Notes: generated by a model not told the origin, from the letters alone. Counted from the first letter of the stretch, positions 252 through 37,182 are shown. The stretch is 64,000 nt of DNA from Cytophagales bacterium (GCA_004294265.1 REAG01000117.1:540-64539); one strand, 5' to 3'. Program-made: numbers and translations.

Positions 252-473
252 TTACAAAGCAATTTGAGATTCGTAAGATTTTCTGAGCTCTTCAAGAAAA
301 CTATTGTCTATATAGCCATTGTTGCTATTAGTATTATTCATAAAACAAAACACCATTTTTGCGTCTAAATCCATCAAAGAAGGCACCGAAACCTCAAAAA
401 TTGAAACTAATTTTTCAATTTTTGAGGTATTTATATCTACTTCGCCACGCTCAATGTGGCTGTATATTTTAAA
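252..473 (-). pseudogene. 5'-truncated XRE-family helix-turn-helix regulator remnant
   Basis: My own reverse-strand translation gives FKIYSHIERGEVDINTSKIEKLVSIFEVSVPSLMDLDAKM...ESQIAL*. This matches only the second half of an HTH_3/XRE domain (IS.IE.G...P....L.KIA..L.V....L). An in-frame TAA lies immediately upstream at 474-476, and no start codon or first helices are present. Confidence 0.5.
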
Positions 474-510
474 TTAATTCATTTAAAAACTTCAATTTGT
501 TATAAATTTT

Positions 511-518
511 TATCTTTG
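511..518 (+). promoter_or_regulatory. candidate Bacteroidota -7 promoter box upstream of the RM gene
   Basis: TATCTTTG matches the Bacteroidetes -7 consensus TAnnTTTG, 42 nt upstream of the ATG at 560. No well-spaced -33 TTTG was found. Confidence 0.3.
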
Positions 519-559
519 CTATTGACTAAGCTTTTTTAATTTTAGAAAGTAAAAATAAA

Positions 560-3500
560 ATGACAACGCAACAATATATTGACAATATAAACAAACGCTA
601 CAAACTTGGAAATGCAACCGAGCATACTTTTCGTGGCGATTTGCAACAACTTTTAGAAAGTTTAGTGCCTGAAATAAGAGCGACCAACGAACCTAAAAGA
701 CAATCTTGCGGAGCTCCTGACTACATTCTGACCAAAAAAGAAATTCCAGTTGGTTTTATAGAAGCCAAAGACATTGGCGACAAAGACCTTGAAGGAGCTA
801 AGAAAACTGGAAATAAAGAACAGTTCGACCGCTACAAGGCTTCGCTAAACAACTTAATTTTTACCGATTATTTAGATTTCCATTTATATATTGATGGCGT
901 TTTTATTACAAAAATCGCTATTGCTGAAATTTCTCCCTCTCCTTTGGGGAGAGCTGGAGAGGGGGTTATCGTTCCCCTGCCCAACAACTTTGCAACTTTT
1001 ACAAATCTCATCAAAGATTTTTGTACACACGTTGGGCAGACCATAAAAAGTTCAAAAAAACTAGCAGAAATAATGGCAGGCAAAGCCAGATTACTTTCGG
1101 ATGTGATTGAAAAATCTTTAACCAGTGACGAGACCCACAACGAAGACAGTACCTTAAAAGATCAAATGATTGCTTTTAGGCAAATATTAATTCATGATAT
1201 TACCCCCAAAGGTTTTGCCGATGTGTATGCCCAAACCATCGCTTATGGTATGTTTGCAGCTCGTTTGCACGACCCAACTTTGGAGACTTTTAGCAGACAA
1301 GAAGCAGCAGAACTTATTCCAAAATCAAATCCGTTTTTACGCAAACTGTTTGGCTACATAGCTGGTCCTGACATTGACGACCGCATAAAATGGATTGTAG
1401 ATAGTTTGGTAGATATATTTTTGGCTTGCAATGTTGAAGAAATTTTAAAAAACTACGGAAAGCAATTCACCTCCTCCTCTGGGGGAGGACGGGAGGGGGC
1501 TGACCCCATCATCCATTTTTACGAAACATTTTTGAGTGAATACGACCCAGCACTAAGAAAAGCAAAAGGCGTTTGGTACACACCGCAACCCGTAGTAAAT
1601 TTTATTGTACGGGCTGTAGATGATATTTTAAAAACAGAATTTGATTTACCACAAGGGCTTGCTGACACCAGCAAAACAAAAATAAAGGTTGATATTCAAG
1701 GCAAAAAAACAGAACAGGAAGTTCATAAAGTGCAAATATTGGACCCTGCCACGGGTACAGGAACTTTTCTTGCCGAAGTAGTAAAACATATTCATAAAAA
1801 GTTTGAAGGACAAAAAGGGATTTGGAGCAATTATGTAGAAAACGATTTATTGCCACGAATTAATGGTTTTGAGCTACTTATGGCAAGTTACGCCATGGCA
1901 CATTTAAAATTAGATTTGCTTTTAAATGAAACAGGTTATTCTCCCTCCCCGATGGGGAGGGCTGGGGTGGGGTTTCAACGCCTTCGAGTTTATCTTACTA
2001 ATAGTTTAGAAGAAAGCCACCCAGATACAGGAACTTTATTTGCAAATTGGTTAAGCACAGAAGCCAATGAAGCCAATCATATCAAGAGAGAAACGCCCGT
2101 AATGTGTGTCATTGGCAATCCGCCTTATGCAGTAAGTTCTACAAACAAAGCAACATGGATAGAAAAACTTACAAAAGATTATAAAAAAGGGCTGAACGAA
2201 CGAAATATTCAACCGCTTTCGGATGATTATATTAAGTTTATTCGTTTTGGGCAGCATTTTGTAGAAAAAAACGGCAGTGGAATTTTGGCATACATTTCTA
2301 ATAATAGTTTTTTGGATGGTATTATTCACCGCCAAATGCGTAAGAATTTATTAGAATGTTTTGACACTATTTATATATTGGATTTACATGGGAATATTAA
2401 GAAAAAAGAAATTTGTACCGATGGAAGTCCAGATCAAAATGTTTTTGACATTATGCAAGGTGTTTCTATCAATATTTTTGTAAAAACAGGCAAGAAAAAG
2501 CAAGGCGAATTAGGCAAAGTTTTACATATTGATTTGCAAGGAAAACGACAATTCAAGTTTGATTTTTTGCTCAATAATTCATTAAAATCTGTTAGTTGGA
2601 ATAATTTACAAAACGACAATTTAAGTTATTTTTTTAGTAATAAACAATTTGATACAAGTGGCGTGTATGAAAATGGATTTAAGCTGAATGAATTGTTCGG
2701 TGAAAACAACGCAGGTTTAGTAACTTCGAGAGATAGTTTTATAATTCAAAACTCTGAAAATGAAGTAAAAAAAACGACACAAGATTTTGCTTACTTAGAC
2801 TCTGAAATTGCACGCAGAAAATACAATTTAGGAAAAGATAGCCGAGATTGGACAGTTAAAAACGCTCAAAAAGATTTAATTGCCCATAATCTTGATACTC
2901 AAAATATCAAACCCATTTTATACAGACCATTTGACATAAAATATTTGTATTATACTGCCAAATCCAAAGGATTTATTTCATACCCAAGAAACGAAATATT
3001 AAGGCATTTGAAAAATGATAATTTTGCTTTAATAACAACAAGACTTTTAAGTTCAACTTTATTCAGCCACTCTTTTATAAGTAATATTTTTGTAGATAAA
3101 TGTACGATTTCTAATCGAGGAAAAGAAACTAATTATGTATTCCCACTTTATCTTTATCCAAAACCAATAAATGAAATTCAAGAAGATGATTTTCAAAACA
3201 AATTGGCTCGATTGGAAGAATCTAAAGTGATTTATGAAAGTGCAAAAAAAGCGTTTATTCAAGTTCAAAAAATGTTTTCGGCAGTTTCAAATCCAGATAA
3301 AGAATTACTTACTTATTATAATCAACAGGTTAAAAACTTAAAGAAACTAGAACTTGAAGTAGAAAAATTTAAAATTCAGCTAGCAAATTCACAAGCAAAA
3401 CCATTATTTGAATCTGAAATTAAACGTAAACCCAACTTAAACCTAGCAATTATAAAACAAATAGCAGATGCGCTAGGCATACCCACCATGTTACCCAACG

Positions 3501-4021
3501 GAGAAGCCCCCTTCGGGGGTTTGGGGGCTCTTGATATTTTAGATTATATCTATGCCGTTTTACATTCGCCAACATACCGAGAAAAATACAAAGAATTTTT
3601 AAAAATAGATTTCCCTAAAATACCTTATCCAAAAACCTATAAGGTCTTCGAAGACCTTATAGGTTTGGGCAGCCAATTAAGACAAATCCATTTATTAGAA
3701 AGCCCAACAATTGAAAAATACATAACGCAATATCCCGAAGATGGAAACAATGTAATTACAAAACCACGTTTTTCTCCCTCTCCTTCGGGGAGGGCTGGGG
3801 TGGGGCTTGTTTATATAAACGAAACTCAATATTTCGATAATGTTCCACAAATAGCTTGGGATTTTTATATTGGCGGTTATCAACCCGCCCAAAAATGGCT
3901 CAAAGACCGCAAGGATAAAAAATTAGAATTTGATGATATTTTGCATTATCAAAAAATCATAGTTGCTTTGACAGAAACGGACAGATTGATGAAAGAAATT
4001 GATAATATTGAGATTGAATAA
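560..4021 (+). CDS. Type IIG single-polypeptide restriction-modification enzyme (N-terminal PD-ExK nuclease, gamma-class N6-adenine methyltransferase, C-terminal specificity domain)
   Basis: Nuclease-like motif GAPDYIL...GFIEAKD. AdoMet motif I ILDPATGTGTFL and catalytic motif IV VIGNPPYAVSS. C-terminal YIYAVLHSPTYREKYKEFLKIDFPKIPYP...IGGYQPAQKWLKDRKDKKLEFDDILHYQKIIVAL resembles the Type ISP/IIG specificity-domain tail. The 1153-codon ORF is intact. Confidence 0.85.
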   Translation: MTTQQYIDNINKRYKLGNATEHTFRGDLQQLLESLVPEIRATNEPKRQSCGAPDYILTKKEIPVGFIEAKDIGDKDLEGAKKTGNKEQFDRYKASLNNLIFTDYLDFHLYIDGVFITKIAIAEISPSPLGRAGEGVIVPLPNNFATFTNLIKDFCTHVGQTIKSSKKLAEIMAGKARLLSDVIEKSLTSDETHNEDSTLKDQMIAFRQILIHDITPKGFADVYAQTIAYGMFAARLHDPTLETFSRQEAAELIPKSNPFLRKLFGYIAGPDIDDRIKWIVDSLVDIFLACNVEEILKNYGKQFTSSSGGGREGADPIIHFYETFLSEYDPALRKAKGVWYTPQPVVNFIVRAVDDILKTEFDLPQGLADTSKTKIKVDIQGKKTEQEVHKVQILDPATGTGTFLAEVVKHIHKKFEGQKGIWSNYVENDLLPRINGFELLMASYAMAHLKLDLLLNETGYSPSPMGRAGVGFQRLRVYLTNSLEESHPDTGTLFANWLSTEANEANHIKRETPVMCVIGNPPYAVSSTNKATWIEKLTKDYKKGLNERNIQPLSDDYIKFIRFGQHFVEKNGSGILAYISNNSFLDGIIHRQMRKNLLECFDTIYILDLHGNIKKKEICTDGSPDQNVFDIMQGVSINIFVKTGKKKQGELGKVLHIDLQGKRQFKFDFLLNNSLKSVSWNNLQNDNLSYFFSNKQFDTSGVYENGFKLNELFGENNAGLVTSRDSFIIQNSENEVKKTTQDFAYLDSEIARRKYNLGKDSRDWTVKNAQKDLIAHNLDTQNIKPILYRPFDIKYLYYTAKSKGFISYPRNEILRHLKNDNFALITTRLLSSTLFSHSFISNIFVDKCTISNRGKETNYVFPLYLYPKPINEIQEDDFQNKLARLEESKVIYESAKKAFIQVQKMFSAVSNPDKELLTYYNQQVKNLKKLELEVEKFKIQLANSQAKPLFESEIKRKPNLNLAIIKQIADALGIPTMLPNGEAPFGGLGALDILDYIYAVLHSPTYREKYKEFLKIDFPKIPYPKTYKVFEDLIGLGSQLRQIHLLESPTIEKYITQYPEDGNNVITKPRFSPSPSGRAGVGLVYINETQYFDNVPQIAWDFYIGGYQPAQKWLKDRKDKKLEFDDILHYQKIIVALTETDRLMKEIDNIEIE
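932..967. repeat. in-frame GC-rich palindromic insert, copy 1 (encodes SPSPLGRAGEGV)
   Basis: tctccctctcctttggggagagctggagagggggtt. Exactly 12 codons (codons 125-136), GC-rich in an AT-rich gene, with a pyrimidine arm and purine arm that can pair. Confidence 0.8.
1469..1504. repeat. in-frame GC-rich insert, copy 2, diverged (encodes TSSSGGGREGAD)
   Basis: acctcctcctctgggggaggacgggagggggctgac. It has the same CT-run followed by G-run architecture as copies 1, 3 and 5, but is diverged and its boundaries are approximate. Confidence 0.55.
1940..1975. repeat. in-frame GC-rich palindromic insert, copy 3 (encodes SPSPMGRAGVGF)
   Basis: tctccctccccgatggggagggctggggtggggttt. Exactly 12 codons (461-472). 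CCCTCCCC and GGGGAGGG form an 8-bp stem around the 3-nt loop gat. It lies between methyltransferase motifs I and IV. Confidence 0.85.
3500..3529. repeat. in-frame GC-rich palindromic insert, copy 4, short variant (encodes GEAPFGGLGA)
   Basis: ggagaagcccccttcgggggtttgggggct. 10 codons. CCCCC-ttc-GGGGG forms a hairpin, with an alternative AGCCCCC/GGGGGCT pairing. It resembles the 3' half of copy 5. Confidence 0.55.
3773..3808. repeat. in-frame GC-rich palindromic insert, copy 5 (encodes SPSPSGRAGVGL)
   Basis: tctccctctccttcggggagggctggggtggggctt. Exactly 12 codons (1072-1083), in the same orientation and reading frame as copies 1 and 3. Confidence 0.85.
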
Positions 4022-4115
4022 CTAAAATACTACAAATTATTTGTATAAATTTAAACAAAAATAAATACATTTACTGTATGAATCCTGCAAATAAAAAACA
4101 CAAAAATTAGAAAAT

Positions 4116-4730
4116 ATGTCTTTAGAAGAAAATGAAAAAAAACGTTTTTTATTTCTGAAATATCTATACACTCAATCAAGTGGAGATGCTACCTATATTT
4201 TTATAATTAGTGAAGTTGGAAAAGAATTAGACTATGACGAAGTTAAACTTATAACTTCTTATCTTTTTGAAGAAAAATTAGTTAAATTCCCAGCTCTTGG
4301 TGGAGTTATTTCAATAACACACCAGGGAATAAAAGAAGTAGAAAATACAATTCGAAATCCAATAAAGAATACAGAACAAATTTTGCATTATAACACTATA
4401 AATATAGGGACAATGAATAATTCTTCATTGCAACAATCAACAACTAATTCAGGCATATCATTTGTGTATAACGAACAAAAATCTTTAGAATTAAATGATA
4501 TAATCAAATTACTAAAGGATATAAAGGATAGTTTTGAACTATCAAATGACTTACAAAATGAACTAATAACTGAACTTCAAACTATTGAATTACAATCTAA
4601 ATCAGTTAAACCTAAAAACATAATTATTTATGAATCTTTAAAAACCATTAGGACAATTCTGGAATCAGTTGCAAGTAACGCAATAGCTCCTTTAATTATT
4701 GACCGAATTACTGCACTTCTTTGTAGCTAA
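4116..4730 (+). CDS. hypothetical protein, 204 aa, function unknown
   Basis: Clean ORF 95 nt downstream of the RM gene on the same strand. The N-terminal ~75 aa look winged-helix-like (KKRFLFLKYLY...EVGKELDYDEVKLITSYLFEEKLVKF...ISITHQGIKEVE). The C-terminal half is helical and repeat-like. No family was recognised. Confidence 0.55.
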   Translation: MSLEENEKKRFLFLKYLYTQSSGDATYIFIISEVGKELDYDEVKLITSYLFEEKLVKFPALGGVISITHQGIKEVENTIRNPIKNTEQILHYNTINIGTMNNSSLQQSTTNSGISFVYNEQKSLELNDIIKLLKDIKDSFELSNDLQNELITELQTIELQSKSVKPKNIIIYESLKTIRTILESVASNAIAPLIIDRITALLCS

Positions 4731-4830
4731 TCATTAATATTTTTAAATGAAGAATTATAATTTTGTATACATGATATCAAATAACACTACCCGCCATGGC
4801 TCTAGGATGCACACTCTGTTGGGTTTTCGA

Positions 4831-5008
4831 TTTTAAAACCGTTTAAATTTGCATTTTTTGAAATATACCAAACCCCCTATCACAGTTTTTGAGCAAGTTA
4901 TCATTTTTTAAGTTCAATATTCCAAAAGCTTATTAAATTGCAAAATGAATATCAAGCTCAAACAAATCCCAAATCAGCAAAAAGCTGAAGAGTTATCAAA
5001 ACTGTTAA
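4831..5008 (+). repeat. direct repeat A: duplicated recJ upstream region plus first ~22 recJ codons
   Basis: Aligns by eye to 6231-6407 with about 10 differences over ~175 nt. The alignment includes the ATG (4945 vs 6344) and MNIKLK(Q/P)IPNQQKAEELSK. Confidence 0.85.
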
Positions 5009-5070
5009 AAGAAATAGAAAATAGTTTAAGAGAAAATTATAATCTAAAATATAATTGTTTAGTATCATAA
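4945..5070 (+). pseudogene. recJ 5' fragment (41-codon leader ORF made by the duplication)
   Basis: Translates as MNIKLKQIPNQQKAEELSKLLKEIENSLRENYNLKYNCLVS*. The first ~20 residues match RecJ at 6344, then the sequence diverges. The TAA at 5068-5070 is 1 nt before the ATG of the next gene (taacATG). Confidence 0.55.
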
Positions 5071-5071
5071 C

Positions 5072-6073
5072 ATGCAATACATACAAGAAATAAAACAAAT
5101 ATTAGCCAATGCAAGGCAAAAAGCCTACACCGCAATCAATGCTGCTATGACAGAAGCATATTGGAAGATAGGCGAAAAAATAGTGCTGGAAGAGCAAAAC
5201 GGAAAAAATCGTGCAGCGTATGGTGAAAGTATTTTAAAAGATTTGTCTATTGCATTAACACAAGAGTTTGGTAAAGGGTTTTCGTATGCTAACCTACGTA
5301 ATTTTAGACAATTTTATTTAACTTATCCCGACCCAGAGATTTGCTACGCAGTGCGTAGCAAATTGACATGGACGCATCATCGTTTGATAATGAGAGTAGA
5401 AAATACGGATGCTAGAAATTATTATCTAAATGAATGTGAAAATCAAAATTGGAGCTCTAGGGTGTTGGAACGAAATATTAATACTTTTTACTATCAAAGA
5501 ATTTTATCTACCAATGCACAATTTCCTGCAACACAGATAAGGGAAATTGAAACTCAAAATATTAAAGATTTCATTAAAGACCCTTACATATTTGAGTTTT
5601 TAAATATAGAACAACCCCATTATGCAAAAGAGCTAGAAATAGAAACCGCATTGATTGAAAATCTACAATCGTTTTTGTTAGAATTAGGCAAAGGTTTTTC
5701 GTTTGTCGCAAAGCAATTCAGAATAAGCACAGAAACAAGTCATTTTTATATAGACCTGGTTTTTTACAATTACATATTGAAATGTTTTGTAATCTTCGAC
5801 TTGAAAACCACCAAATTAACCCATCAAGACGTGGGACAGTTAGATATGTATGTGAGAATGTTTGACGACTTGAAAAAGCAAGACAACGACAACCCCAGTA
5901 TTGGCATCTTACTCTGTGCCGAAAAAGATGAAACCGTAGTGAAATATTCGGTATTGGCAGAAAATAAACAGCTTTTTGCCACCAAATATTTACCTTTCTT
6001 ACCTACCGAGCAAGAACTGATTGCCGAAATTGAAAGGGAAAAACTAAGCATCAAACAAAAACAAAATGAGTAG
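5072..6073 (+). CDS. YhcG-like PD-(D/E)XK nuclease family protein (DUF1016)
   Basis: N-terminal ARQKAYTAINAAMTEAYWKIGEKIV..EQNGKNRAAYGESILKDLS, central IKDPYIFEFL and the nuclease core ELGKGFSFVAKQFRI...YIDLVFYNYILKCFVIFDLKTTKLTHQDVGQLDMYV are characteristic of YhcG/DUF1016. Confidence 0.85.
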   Translation: MQYIQEIKQILANARQKAYTAINAAMTEAYWKIGEKIVLEEQNGKNRAAYGESILKDLSIALTQEFGKGFSYANLRNFRQFYLTYPDPEICYAVRSKLTWTHHRLIMRVENTDARNYYLNECENQNWSSRVLERNINTFYYQRILSTNAQFPATQIREIETQNIKDFIKDPYIFEFLNIEQPHYAKELEIETALIENLQSFLLELGKGFSFVAKQFRISTETSHFYIDLVFYNYILKCFVIFDLKTTKLTHQDVGQLDMYVRMFDDLKKQDNDNPSIGILLCAEKDETVVKYSVLAENKQLFATKYLPFLPTEQELIAEIEREKLSIKQKQNE

Positions 6074-6230
6074 AAATAAATTAACCCAAGTATTTCATTA
6101 TGACCTAACAAGCTATATCAATCTATGTTTTTACCAAGAAAAAATAATAAAAAGAGCAATTTAATTACAGTTTATACTATAAAAATTGGCTCAAGAATTC
6201 AACTTATAAATGCAAATTTTGTAATTAACA

Positions 6231-6407
6231 TTTTAAAGCCGTTTAAACTTGCATTTTTTGAATATACCAAACCCGCTATCACAGTTTTTGAGCGAATTAT
6301 CATTTTTTAGGTTCAATATGCCAAAAGCTTATTAAATTGCAAAATGAATATCAAGCTCAAACCAATCCCAAATCAGCAAAAAGCTGAAGAATTATCAAAG
6401 TTATTAA
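6231..6407 (+). repeat. direct repeat B: native recJ upstream region and 5' coding end
   Basis: Partner of 4831-5008. It continues into the full-length recJ ORF. Confidence 0.85.
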
Positions 6408-8041
6408 ATATCAATATTTTACTTTCAAACTTATTAATACAAAGAGAAATAGATAATTTTGAAAATGCAAAATCATTTTTCAGACCAAATCTAAATGAAA
6501 TTCACAATCCATTTTTGATGAAAAATATGGATAAAGCTGTGGAAAAAATAATAAAAGCCATCGAAAATAAAGAAAAAATATTAATTTATGGCGATTATGA
6601 CGTGGATGGAACTACTGCGGTTGCGTTAGTTTTTGATTTTCTAGGCAAATATCATACCCATATTGACTATTATGTTCCTGATAGATATACAGAAGGTTAC
6701 GGAATTTCAACTTTAAGTATAGATTTTGCAAAAGAAAATAATTTTTCGCTTGTAATAGCCCTAGATTGTGGCATTAAATCAAATGAAAAAATAAATTATG
6801 CTAACACTTTAGGAATTGATTTTATCATTTGCGATCATCACGAGCCAGGTGAAGAAATTCCAAAAGCGCTTGCCGTTCTTGATGCCAAGCAAAACGATTG
6901 TAACTATCCATACAAAGAACTTTCGGGTTGTGGCGTTGGGTTTAAATTAATGCAAGCATATTGTATTAAAAAAAACATTGAATTAGATAAATTATTTCCG
7001 TATTTAGATTTGCTTTGTGTAAGTATTGGAGCAGACATAGTGCCAATAGACGGAGAAAACCGTATTTTTTGCTATCATGGATTAAAAATAATCAATGAAA
7101 ACCCACGTTTTGGAATTAAATCTTTAATAGGAATATCAGGATTTAAAAAGCAATTTAAAATTTCAGACGTTGTTTTTAAACTCGCTCCTAGAATAAATGC
7201 CGCAGGAAGAATTCATCATGCGAAAGCTGCCATAAACTTACTCATTTCAAATACAGAAGAAGAAGCAGAAAAATGGGCTACAAAACTTAATGATAGTAAT
7301 ATTTACAGAAAAGAATTAGATAAAATAATCACAGAAGAAGCCATAGAAATGATAGAAAATCAAGTTGATTTTCTATCATTAAAATCAACAGTTTTATTTA
7401 AAAATGATTGGAACAAAGGCGTAATCGGAATTGTGGCTTCTCGTTGCATAGAAAAATATTATAAGCCAACCATTATTTTAACAGAATCTAACGGAATTGC
7501 AGCAGGATCGGCTCGTTCAGTTCATGGATTTGATTTATACAATGCCATTTCAAATTGCTCAGACTATTTAGCACAATTTGGAGGACACACCCATGCGGCA
7601 GGCATGACTTTAAAAATTGAAAATATTGAAAACTTTAGAAAAGCATTTGAAAAACAAGTTTCAAAAACAATAAAAGAAGACTCATTAACGCCACAAATGC
7701 TTGTCGATATGGAAGTTCCACTTTCATTTGTTAGTTTAAAAACAGAAAAAATAATTTCACAAATGCAACCTTTCGGACCAAAAAATATGACTCCCGTTTT
7801 TATTACTAAAGGATTAATTGACGGAGGAAACAGTCGAGTTGTAGGTGAAATTCATCTAAAATTAGATTTACATTGCCCCACTTCAAATATAAAAATTGCA
7901 GGTATTGCATTCCAAAAAGGAAATTTAATCAATCAAATTCAACAAAAACACCCATTTACAATCTGTTACACTTTAGAAGAAAATATATTTAACAATATTA
8001 AAACCGTCCAAGCTCAAGTCAAAGAAATCATATTTGAATAA
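6344..8041 (+). CDS. recJ: single-stranded-DNA-specific exonuclease RecJ
   Basis: DHH-family motifs GDYDVDGTTA, LDCG and ICDHHEP, plus the DHHA1 motif FGGHTHAAG. 565 aa. Confidence 0.95.
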   Translation: MNIKLKPIPNQQKAEELSKLLNINILLSNLLIQREIDNFENAKSFFRPNLNEIHNPFLMKNMDKAVEKIIKAIENKEKILIYGDYDVDGTTAVALVFDFLGKYHTHIDYYVPDRYTEGYGISTLSIDFAKENNFSLVIALDCGIKSNEKINYANTLGIDFIICDHHEPGEEIPKALAVLDAKQNDCNYPYKELSGCGVGFKLMQAYCIKKNIELDKLFPYLDLLCVSIGADIVPIDGENRIFCYHGLKIINENPRFGIKSLIGISGFKKQFKISDVVFKLAPRINAAGRIHHAKAAINLLISNTEEEAEKWATKLNDSNIYRKELDKIITEEAIEMIENQVDFLSLKSTVLFKNDWNKGVIGIVASRCIEKYYKPTIILTESNGIAAGSARSVHGFDLYNAISNCSDYLAQFGGHTHAAGMTLKIENIENFRKAFEKQVSKTIKEDSLTPQMLVDMEVPLSFVSLKTEKIISQMQPFGPKNMTPVFITKGLIDGGNSRVVGEIHLKLDLHCPTSNIKIAGIAFQKGNLINQIQQKHPFTICYTLEENIFNNIKTVQAQVKEIIFE

Positions 8042-8042
8042 A

Positions 8043-8271
8043 GGGAACCTCTAAAAACCCCAATATTATTTTTAAAAACCCCACCCAAACCCTCCCCAAG
8101 TGAGAGCAATGTCGTTAAGTTAAGATGCTCGAAAGTCCCTCCCCCTTTTTGGATTCTGCGTCTTCGTAGCAGAACTTGGATTTAGGGAGGGGTTTAATGA
8201 AAGTAATTTCTTTAACTTAACGACATTGCAAGTGAGAGAGCTTCATCGGAATTGAATTTTTAGGAGTTCAC
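8043..8271 (+). repeat. MITE-like GC-box element, composite/nested long copy (229 bp)
   Basis: Its ends match the 119-bp family (gggaacctctaaaaacc...tttttaggagttcac). The interior is a 122-bp unit bounded by an 18-bp perfect inverted repeat (8106-8123 / 8212-8229) and a 10-bp direct repeat caagtgagag (8097-8106 / 8229-8238). That unit carries an inverted second copy of the family core hairpin. Confidence 0.75.
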
Positions 8272-37148: not shown

Positions 37149-37182
37149 AAACCTATAAGGTTTGAAAAAAACTTATAGGTTT
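37149..37182 (+). terminator. hairpin after TA pair 1
   Basis: 11-bp stem aaacctataag / cttataggttt with a 12-nt loop, 11 nt after the stop codon. The T-tract is weak. Confidence 0.4.

Follow-up and report, generated by a model that had tools for sequence, protein, structure and literature searches.

A Type IIG restriction enzyme gene, a predicted AbiTi-like gene and a DUF1016 nuclease gene side by side in a Cytophagales contig

The locus described here raises the question whether a restriction-modification (RM) gene and the two genes that follow it act as one multi-gene defence system or were brought together as separate modules. It occupies positions 252-6073 of a 64,000-nucleotide (nt) stretch of DNA (REAG01000117.1:540-64539; the window, meaning the whole stretch that was analysed) from a Cytophagales metagenome-assembled genome (MAG) contig. 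A preliminary description had listed a helix-turn-helix (HTH) remnant, a Type IIG RM gene, an open reading frame (ORF) of 204 amino acids (aa) and a DUF1016 nuclease gene, and all four features were recovered at the same coordinates by the ORF list and by domain scans with Pfam and PADLOC. The region was also found to be a defence-type islet, as had been proposed, since all three intact genes matched PADLOC models (REase_MTase_IIG, PDC-M14B and PDC-S02). On balance it is read as a mosaic defence islet assembled from separately mobile modules and not as one multi-gene system. The proposal of a functional partnership between the genes stood in one part, the recurrence of the 204-aa family beside restriction, nuclease and other defence genes, but not in the other, an obligate multi-gene system, and no evidence was found of mutual dependence among the three genes. 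Taken as a whole the islet is ordinary, since Type IIG genes next to DUF1016 nuclease genes are an already published pattern. The features of the region were as follows.

252-473, minus strand: 5′-truncated XRE-type HTH gene remnant (translation, Pfam HTH_3, PADLOC HTH_VI)
511-518, plus strand: candidate -7 promoter box of the Bacteroidota type, TATCTTTG, lying 42 nt before the Type IIG start codon (TAnnTTTG pattern, consensus match only)
560-4021, plus strand: single-chain Type IIG RM enzyme, 1153 aa (Pfam, PADLOC, motifs, PDB matches)
4116-4730, plus strand: 204-aa protein with a predicted winged HTH (3-80), an invariant linker (86-114) and a four-helix AbiTi-like/PDC-M14B-like domain (120-203) (AlphaFold2, Foldseek, PADLOC)
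4826-5009, plus strand: left copy of the recJ 5′ repeat, with the recJ promoter region and the opening 21 codons of the gene (alignment to 6225-6408)
5072-6073, plus strand: DUF1016/YhcG PD-(D/E)xK nuclease, PADLOC PDC-S02 (Pfam, PADLOC, motif)
6225-6408, plus strand: right copy of the recJ 5′ repeat, running on into the intact recJ (alignment, ORF list)
6344-8041, plus strand: intact recJ (DHH, DHHA1 and RecJ_OB domains)

Composition and assembly of the islet

By its sequence the protein encoded at 560-4021 is an intact, autonomous Type IIG RM enzyme, its activity being predicted. It was found to match the PADLOC model REase_MTase_IIG over the full length (E = 0, aligned from residue 2) and to contain the N-terminal PD-(D/E)xK nuclease motif PDYILTKKEIPVGFIEAK (PD...EAK) at residues 53-70, followed by the intact gamma-class N6-adenine methylase motifs GVWYTP (337), DPATGTG (395) and NPPY (520) and, on the same polypeptide, by a C-terminal specificity domain (Pfam Type_ISP_C at residues 711-1146, E 2e-83). 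The Pfam models N6_Mtase, Eco57I and MmeI_Mtase were also above their cut-offs. The domain order and the motifs were found to be shared with DrdV, BpuSI and MmeI and with the methylase-specificity half of LlaGI and LlaBIII. The PDB matches (LlaBIII, DrdV and LlaGI) covered the methylase-specificity region only, from residue 313, with sequence matches of 3e-32 for DrdV and 3.5e-33 for LlaBIII, and those to LlaBIII and LlaGI began at query residues 313-314 and at chain residues 842 and 677, respectively, past their motors. True Type ISP enzymes contain a superfamily 2 (SF2) helicase-like ATPase between the nuclease and the methylase, whereas no helicase, ResIII or DEAD match was found with Pfam in the window enzyme; it was therefore assigned to Type IIG and not to Type ISP, although NCBI names its relatives 'type ISP'.

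At E ≤ 1e-50 the family of this enzyme numbers 8,000 proteins or more. With 64-73% identity over the full length, four close relatives were found amid housekeeping genes or in a tandem array of three paralogues, and no 204-aa homologue was found near any of the four. Because the 204-aa ORF is not conserved beside these relatives, the Type IIG enzyme does not need the 204-aa gene, which speaks against an obligate multi-gene system and is one of the outcomes that the preliminary description had named as refuting its proposal.

The two genes were nevertheless found to travel together. The neighbourhoods of the 204-aa family were sampled in about 35 loci (labels L0xx) from genomes and metagenomes, and in one of these, L009, positions 1348-2456 were found to align with 3533-4709 of the window as a single colinear block of 75% nucleotide identity between unrelated flanks. 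The block, present in two MAGs, comprised the 3′ block of the Type IIG gene, the intergenic region and the 204-aa gene, and because its flanks differ between the window and L009 the Type IIG gene and the 204-aa gene move as a cassette. In the window the 204-aa ORF begins about 95 nt (94-95) past the Type IIG stop codon, and co-transcription is plausible since neither a terminator-like site nor an exact Bacteroidota -7 box was found in the 94-nt gap (4022-4115). In L009 the cassette ends exactly at the stop codon of the 204-aa gene, where it abuts a second, 5′-truncated Type IIG copy. This second copy was found to contain a different specificity region, and a DUF1016 gene splits its methylase/specificity junction (L009 1-5129), the insert being flanked by direct repeats of the Type IIG 3′ block (~500 nt, 80% identity). 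The L009 contig ends inside the first Type IIG copy, and an assembly effect is possible there.

The HTH remnant probably marks the left edge of the inserted cassette (~480-4830). Its frame is open from 473 to the stop codon at 252-254, with stop codons directly upstream, and the earliest start is an internal GTG at 386. Only the C-terminal half of Pfam HTH_3 was matched (positions 26-52 of 55, E 0.02), together with PADLOC HTH_VI (E 0.0015); these matches are weak but consistent with a 5′-truncated XRE-type gene. A part as an intact XRE-HTH gene for an RM controller (C) protein did not survive, the remnant being without its N-terminal half and start codon. No full-length relative of the remnant was found in the fetched loci, and no homologue of it was found beside related Type IIG genes. 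In the proposed course of events the two-gene cassette, a self-sufficient Type IIG gene followed by the 204-aa gene, would have landed beside or inside the XRE-HTH gene and left the truncated remnant behind.

The DUF1016 protein was found to contain DUF1016_N (1e-47, 162 bits) and YhcG_C (1.7e-55, 188 bits), the Pfam cut-offs being ~33 bits, followed by a D...DLK motif at residues 228-245, and it matched PADLOC PDC-S02 at 5.7e-134. DUF1016 genes beside or inside RM loci are a known pattern, with which the full-length match and the position beside the Type IIG gene agree (PMC9881135). Unlike the other DUF1016 genes examined, that of the window stands between two copies of the recJ 5′ end. This ~180-nt direct repeat, overlooked in the preliminary description, is identical in 169 of the 185 aligned columns. 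A 41-codon recJ′ ORF (4945-5070) upstream of the DUF1016 gene begins in the left copy, which was found to contain the consensus Bacteroidota -7 box TAAATTTG at 4844-4851, whereas the right copy, before the intact recJ, reads TAAACTTG. No integrase or recombinase gene was found between the repeats, where the DUF1016 gene is the sole plus-strand ORF of at least 60 aa. Among the DUF1016 genes of other loci examined, direct repeats were found in L009 only, and there they are the Type IIG repeats.

Because of its own ~180-nt flanking duplication, and because its product is only 29% identical to the L009 DUF1016 protein, the DUF1016 gene is taken as a separate arrival; its inclusion in one system with the other two genes was not supported. 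The recJ repeats are the footprint that would be expected from single-crossover or att-like insertion of DNA carrying the recJ 5′ segment of a related strain. The nuclease gene would thus have come independently, by single-crossover (Campbell-type) or att-like recombination in the recJ 5′ end, with ~180 nt duplicated and recJ kept intact.

Several further features were observed in and around these genes. Inside the HTH remnant, at 391-428, an inverted repeat was found whose 16-bp arms pair perfectly around a 6-nt loop, with a T-rich stretch after it; it may be a terminator for a small membrane-protein ORF (29-187) or a former operator. A GC-rich hairpin of ~36 nt was found in-frame three times in the Type IIG gene (921-967, 1929-1975 and 3762-3808, plus strand), in one orientation and one frame and encoding the peptide SPSPxGRAGxG, with a degenerate copy at 8079-8108 on the minus strand. 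The resulting loop insertions of 8-11 aa were absent from most Type IIG homologues, unlike which the window enzyme contains all three; a few members of the clade were found to contain similar insertions in the same loops. In 663 kilobases (kb) of fetched loci the hairpin was confined to the Type IIG genes of the window and of L009. The Type IIG ORF also contained a perfect 34-nt palindrome (3633-3666, plus strand), the sole perfect palindrome of at least 24 nt in the window, located in a conserved block, ~100 nt past the variable specificity region. In L009 both Type IIG copies were found to contain a palindrome of other sequence at the same gene position, and arms similar to those of the window palindrome form an intergenic terminator-like hairpin at 37149-37182. 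This palindrome may be a recombination or regulatory site. Three tandem Type IIG paralogues of the same family were present on a Cytophagales-type MAG contig (L055 1-9354).

The 204-aa protein and its proposed AbiTi-like domain

The 204-aa protein was found to be identical to NCBI EAZ27_02135, encoded on a 65.6-kb contig, and to have 23 homologues at 43-65% identity. A profile search of its family recovered 3,806 representative clusters (50% identity) at E ≤ 1e-3, 380 of them reaching 1e-30, and with these numbers of homologues and clusters the ORF is a real conserved gene. Most members were ~205 aa long, and some contained N-terminal extensions of no recognised domain. No match was found to the protein among Pfam and NCBIfam models or in a phage database, and the profile of the family gave nothing significant against PDB sequences.

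In the AlphaFold2 model (predicted local distance difference test, pLDDT, 75.8) residues 3-80 form a winged helix and residues 120-203 a four-helix bundle, with a linker of low confidence between them at 86-114. The linker is the most conserved stretch of the family, reading PTEHFLPINIINIGTMNNSxLQQGT. With Foldseek against PDB the N-terminal part alone was matched, to the winged helices of MarR, GntR and CggR (probability 0.98-1.00, 74-86 aligned columns), with E-values of at least 0.34 that make this fold-level evidence only, and the C-terminal bundle was not resolved. The winged-helix-like N-terminus given in the preliminary description thus agrees with the model, while the repeat-like C-terminus is replaced by a four-helix bundle and the absence of a recognisable family by membership of a PDC-M14B/AbiTi-like family.

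That membership was seen most clearly across the family. The window protein matched PADLOC PDC-M14B at E 1.9e-5, in an alignment that pairs its residues 94-192 with positions 157-255 of the 275 in the model. When 150 family representatives were scanned singly, PDC-M14B was found in 144 and AbiTi in 119 of them (best E 3e-13), and in the homologue of L033 the AbiTi match extended over residues 97-191, that is, over the linker and the helical bundle. A winged helix joined to an AbiTi-like domain is the description that suits the 204-aa protein best.

The lactococcal abortive-infection system AbiT, of unknown mechanism, consists of two genes, and AbiTi is one of them (PMC13064643). A Coprococcus catus homologue of AbiTi was toxic in E. 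coli, and AbiTii failed to neutralise it (PMC3985639). In the 204-aa family it is the C-terminal half that shares homology with AbiTi. A family member was found directly beside an AbiTii gene in L019, L020 and L036 only, AbiTii coming first in these loci. Unlike AbiT, the window protein contains an extra N-terminal winged helix and follows a Type IIG gene. No relationship was found by hhalign between the 204-aa family and an AbiTii protein. PDC-M14, a computationally proposed PADLOC candidate, supplies in its component B the best database match of the window protein, but only the C-terminal ~100 residues align and the N-terminal 155 model positions are unmatched. No PDC-M14A component was matched among the window proteins scanned or among ~40 neighbours in related loci, and no paper of the library searched was found to mention PDC-M14.

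A small accessory gene that rides with a restriction system recalls the second-line suicide modules, of which PrrC, attached to the RM system EcoprrI, and the HEPN-RM combinations are examples. Such a multi-layer strategy has been described (PMC3710099). The likeness to PrrC and the HEPN-RM modules is one of mode and not of membership; relatives of the 204-aa gene ride with many other first-line defences, and, unlike the PrrC and HEPN modules, the protein has no recognised nuclease or HEPN catalytic motif. The role tentatively preferred for the protein, as the likeliest of those considered, is that of a second-line abortive-infection effector. Co-transcription with the restriction enzyme would then be probable, and once an infection passes the first line growth would be arrested by the AbiTi-like domain, the winged helix serving as sensor or regulator.

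The main rival is the role of a plain transcription regulator, which is held to be rather unlikely. Like regulators of the BrxR/CapW type, the protein would then use its winged helix to govern either the defence gene before it or the operon to which it belongs, with a helical domain that dimerises or senses and is not toxic. The resemblance of the N-terminus to MarR, GntR and CggR DNA-binding domains fits such a role, as do a second winged helix in some relatives and the tight placement of the gene beside many defence genes (10-nt gaps), which is the habit of modular defence regulators. Regulators of this kind, however, usually stand upstream of their targets or divergent from them, whereas the 204-aa gene is consistently last, and its C-terminal half shares homology with AbiTi, one homologue of which was toxic in E. 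coli. A fused single-chain Type IIG enzyme is also without an obvious need for a controller, and most of its relatives have none.

A 211-aa hypothetical protein of an Enterobacter plasmid (NZ_CP091084.1, L065 4599-5231) was found to fuse the C-terminal part of AbiTii to a PDC-M14B/AbiTi-like domain and is in effect a single-chain AbiT. Similar matches were found on Aeromonas and Klebsiella plasmids (conjugative and mobilizable).

Neighbourhoods of the 204-aa family

The recurrent association of 204-aa homologues with restriction, nuclease and other defence genes was upheld by the neighbourhood survey, in which the family gene was nearly always co-directional with and close to the upstream gene. 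The partners were as follows.

Upstream, ISP_C-type Type IIG: window (95-nt gap), L009 (44-nt gap)
Upstream, 820-aa divergent Type IIG-like protein, 10-nt gap: L010-L013, L002-L004, L025
Upstream, HamA and HamB (Hachiman), 10-nt gap: L014
Upstream, Type II restriction endonuclease remnant: L015
Upstream, AbiTii: L019, L020, L036
Upstream, RelA_SpoT protein: L031
Fused to the N-terminus, Pol-beta nucleotidyltransferase: L017
Downstream, DUF1016, 16-nt gap: L033
Downstream, SIR2: L020
Downstream, AbiP/AbiC-like: L016
Downstream, HKD-Snf2: L013
Downstream, NucS_C protein: L008

An ISP_C-type Type IIG gene was also found in L035, ~1.8 kb off and on the opposite strand. The family is modular and repeatedly tied to varied defence genes, and the commonest partners of its closest branch were two sequence-unrelated Type IIG-like enzymes.

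The second of these, the 820-aa protein (L013 7528-9990; also L010-L012, L002 and L059-L064), was found to have 1,719 homologues, of which the best 120 listed are 72-90% identical, and to match no Pfam, PADLOC or NCBIfam model. It contained the N6-adenine methylase motifs FEGEFYTP, DMAAGTG and NPPF, with an N-terminal D..EFK (PD-(D/E)xK-like). A low-confidence model (pLDDT 61) gave BpuSI (8.7e-5), DrdV and MmeI as best Foldseek matches. The alignment of its family with the Type IIG family by hhalign, both alignments being shallow, covered motif I alone, so the assignment rests on the motifs and Foldseek; the family is probably one of divergent, unannotated Type IIG-like enzymes of unusually conserved sequence. 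The 820-aa gene is usually solitary, and no relationship was found by hhalign between the 204-aa family and the 266-aa gene that follows one solitary copy.

A conserved palindromic element of ~130 nt (22-bp stem, ~10 compensatory double changes) was observed after the 206-aa gene in L010-L013 and L002, its copies lying at L010 4300-4465 and L011 10650-10815 and in L012, L013 and L002. No Rfam match to it was found, and the element was absent from the window. A reading as a dedicated structured or partner RNA was dropped when BLAST found extra copies at L011 11937-12033 and 13006-13124, L026 4096-4244 and L015 7321-7395, and the element looks like a multi-copy mobile or repetitive extragenic palindromic (REP)-like intergenic repeat of Bacteroidota.

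In a distant branch of the family (230-260 aa) the gene was always preceded by that of a conserved ~150-aa protein whose C-terminus contains a membrane helix, the stop and start codons of the pair overlapping or nearly so (L022 4974-5471, L023, L038, L040, L042-L045 and L047). This pair may be a separate two-gene system.

It is conceivable, if doubtful, that the winged-helix and AbiTi-like family is a general plug-in second-line module at the 3′ end of unrelated first-line defences, namely the two Type IIG-like families, Hachiman, restriction endonucleases and AbiTii. Growth arrest would then follow the bypass or inhibition of those defences, the linker PTEHFLPxNIINIGxMxNSxxQQGT would serve in coupling or oligomerisation, and the distant branch would use its membrane-anchored partner as the effector.

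The same survey bears on a two-gene unit of the 204-aa protein and the DUF1016 nuclease, in which a DNA-binding sensor and a nuclease effector would together associate with restriction enzymes; it appears improbable. In the window, L009 and L033 the gene directly after a family member was found to be a DUF1016 gene, and in L008 one lies 6 kb away, and the 29% identity between the window and L009 DUF1016 proteins means that at least two of the adjacencies arose independently. About 30 of the 35 family loci were nonetheless without a DUF1016 gene. The window pair is parted by the recJ fragment and its DUF1016 gene has a duplication of its own, whereas the L009 pair is parted by a Type IIG fragment. 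DUF1016 genes are among the commonest residents of RM loci, so that some repeated adjacency is expected; the rough p of ~0.02 for at least three in 25 loci assumes that DUF1016 makes up 2% of island genes, and the three adjacencies, suggestive as they are, lie within reach of defence-island clustering. A PDC-S02 gene alone, challenged with T4, T5 and T7, was outside the 4 of 8 candidates reported protective (bioRxiv 10.1101/2024.09.26.614923).

A 204-aa gene unconnected with defence, for example one for a mobile-element DNA-binding protein with coincidental neighbours, is very improbable. No function has been shown for any member, neither Pfam nor NCBIfam has a model for it, and conjugative and mobilizable plasmids carry the C-terminal domain as well, but many kinds of defence gene recur as neighbours in different phyla, AbiTi and PDC-M14B are homologues of the family, and the phage database gave no match. 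Least probable of all is the cooperation of all three genes as one undescribed multi-gene defence system, for although they are adjacent and co-directional and the trio of gene types recurs in L009, the Type IIG relatives are solitary, the DUF1016 genes of the two loci are not orthologous (29% identity), that of the window is a separately bounded insertion, and the 204-aa family elsewhere pairs with Hachiman, AbiTii and others.

Standing of the mosaic reading

Several observations weigh against the reading of the region as a mosaic islet with a second-line AbiTi-like module. The window comes from a metagenome-assembled contig, and its left junction was confirmed by an independent 1.3-kb contig only up to 4951. 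The window protein itself reaches PDC-M14B only (E 2e-5, ~100 residues) and not AbiTi. A hidden Markov model (HMM) built from three AbiTii sequences found no AbiTii partner among the window ORFs of at least 60 aa, with E allowed up to 10, and the pair of genes that defines AbiT is therefore missing from the 64 kb. No Rx4-6H-type motif was conserved in the 204-aa family, and the endoribonuclease-like fold of AbiTi is a structural prediction only (PMC13064643). As modelled, the winged helix would suit a plain transcription regulator equally well. Several of the ~35 loci are copies of one mobile module, leaving perhaps 12-15 independent associations, and the three direct adjacencies of a family member and DUF1016 (window, L009 and L033) could be a real, under-weighted link.

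With these points weighed, the mosaic of a mobile two-gene cassette and a separately arrived nuclease gene is still the preferred reading of the region. The gene identities, the family membership, the neighbourhoods, the recJ duplication and the joint mobility of the Type IIG and 204-aa genes are shown; co-transcription, any toxicity or abortive-infection activity of the 204-aa protein and the way in which the nuclease gene was inserted are inferred. The recJ duplication is a clean footprint of the way in which one defence gene can enter an essential-type gene at the 5′ end and leave it intact. The family represented in the window by the 204-aa ORF is very large and unnamed, and its members accompany defence genes of many sorts; it offers a testable handle on AbiT, a 20-year-old system of unknown mechanism, and on an unvalidated PADLOC candidate.

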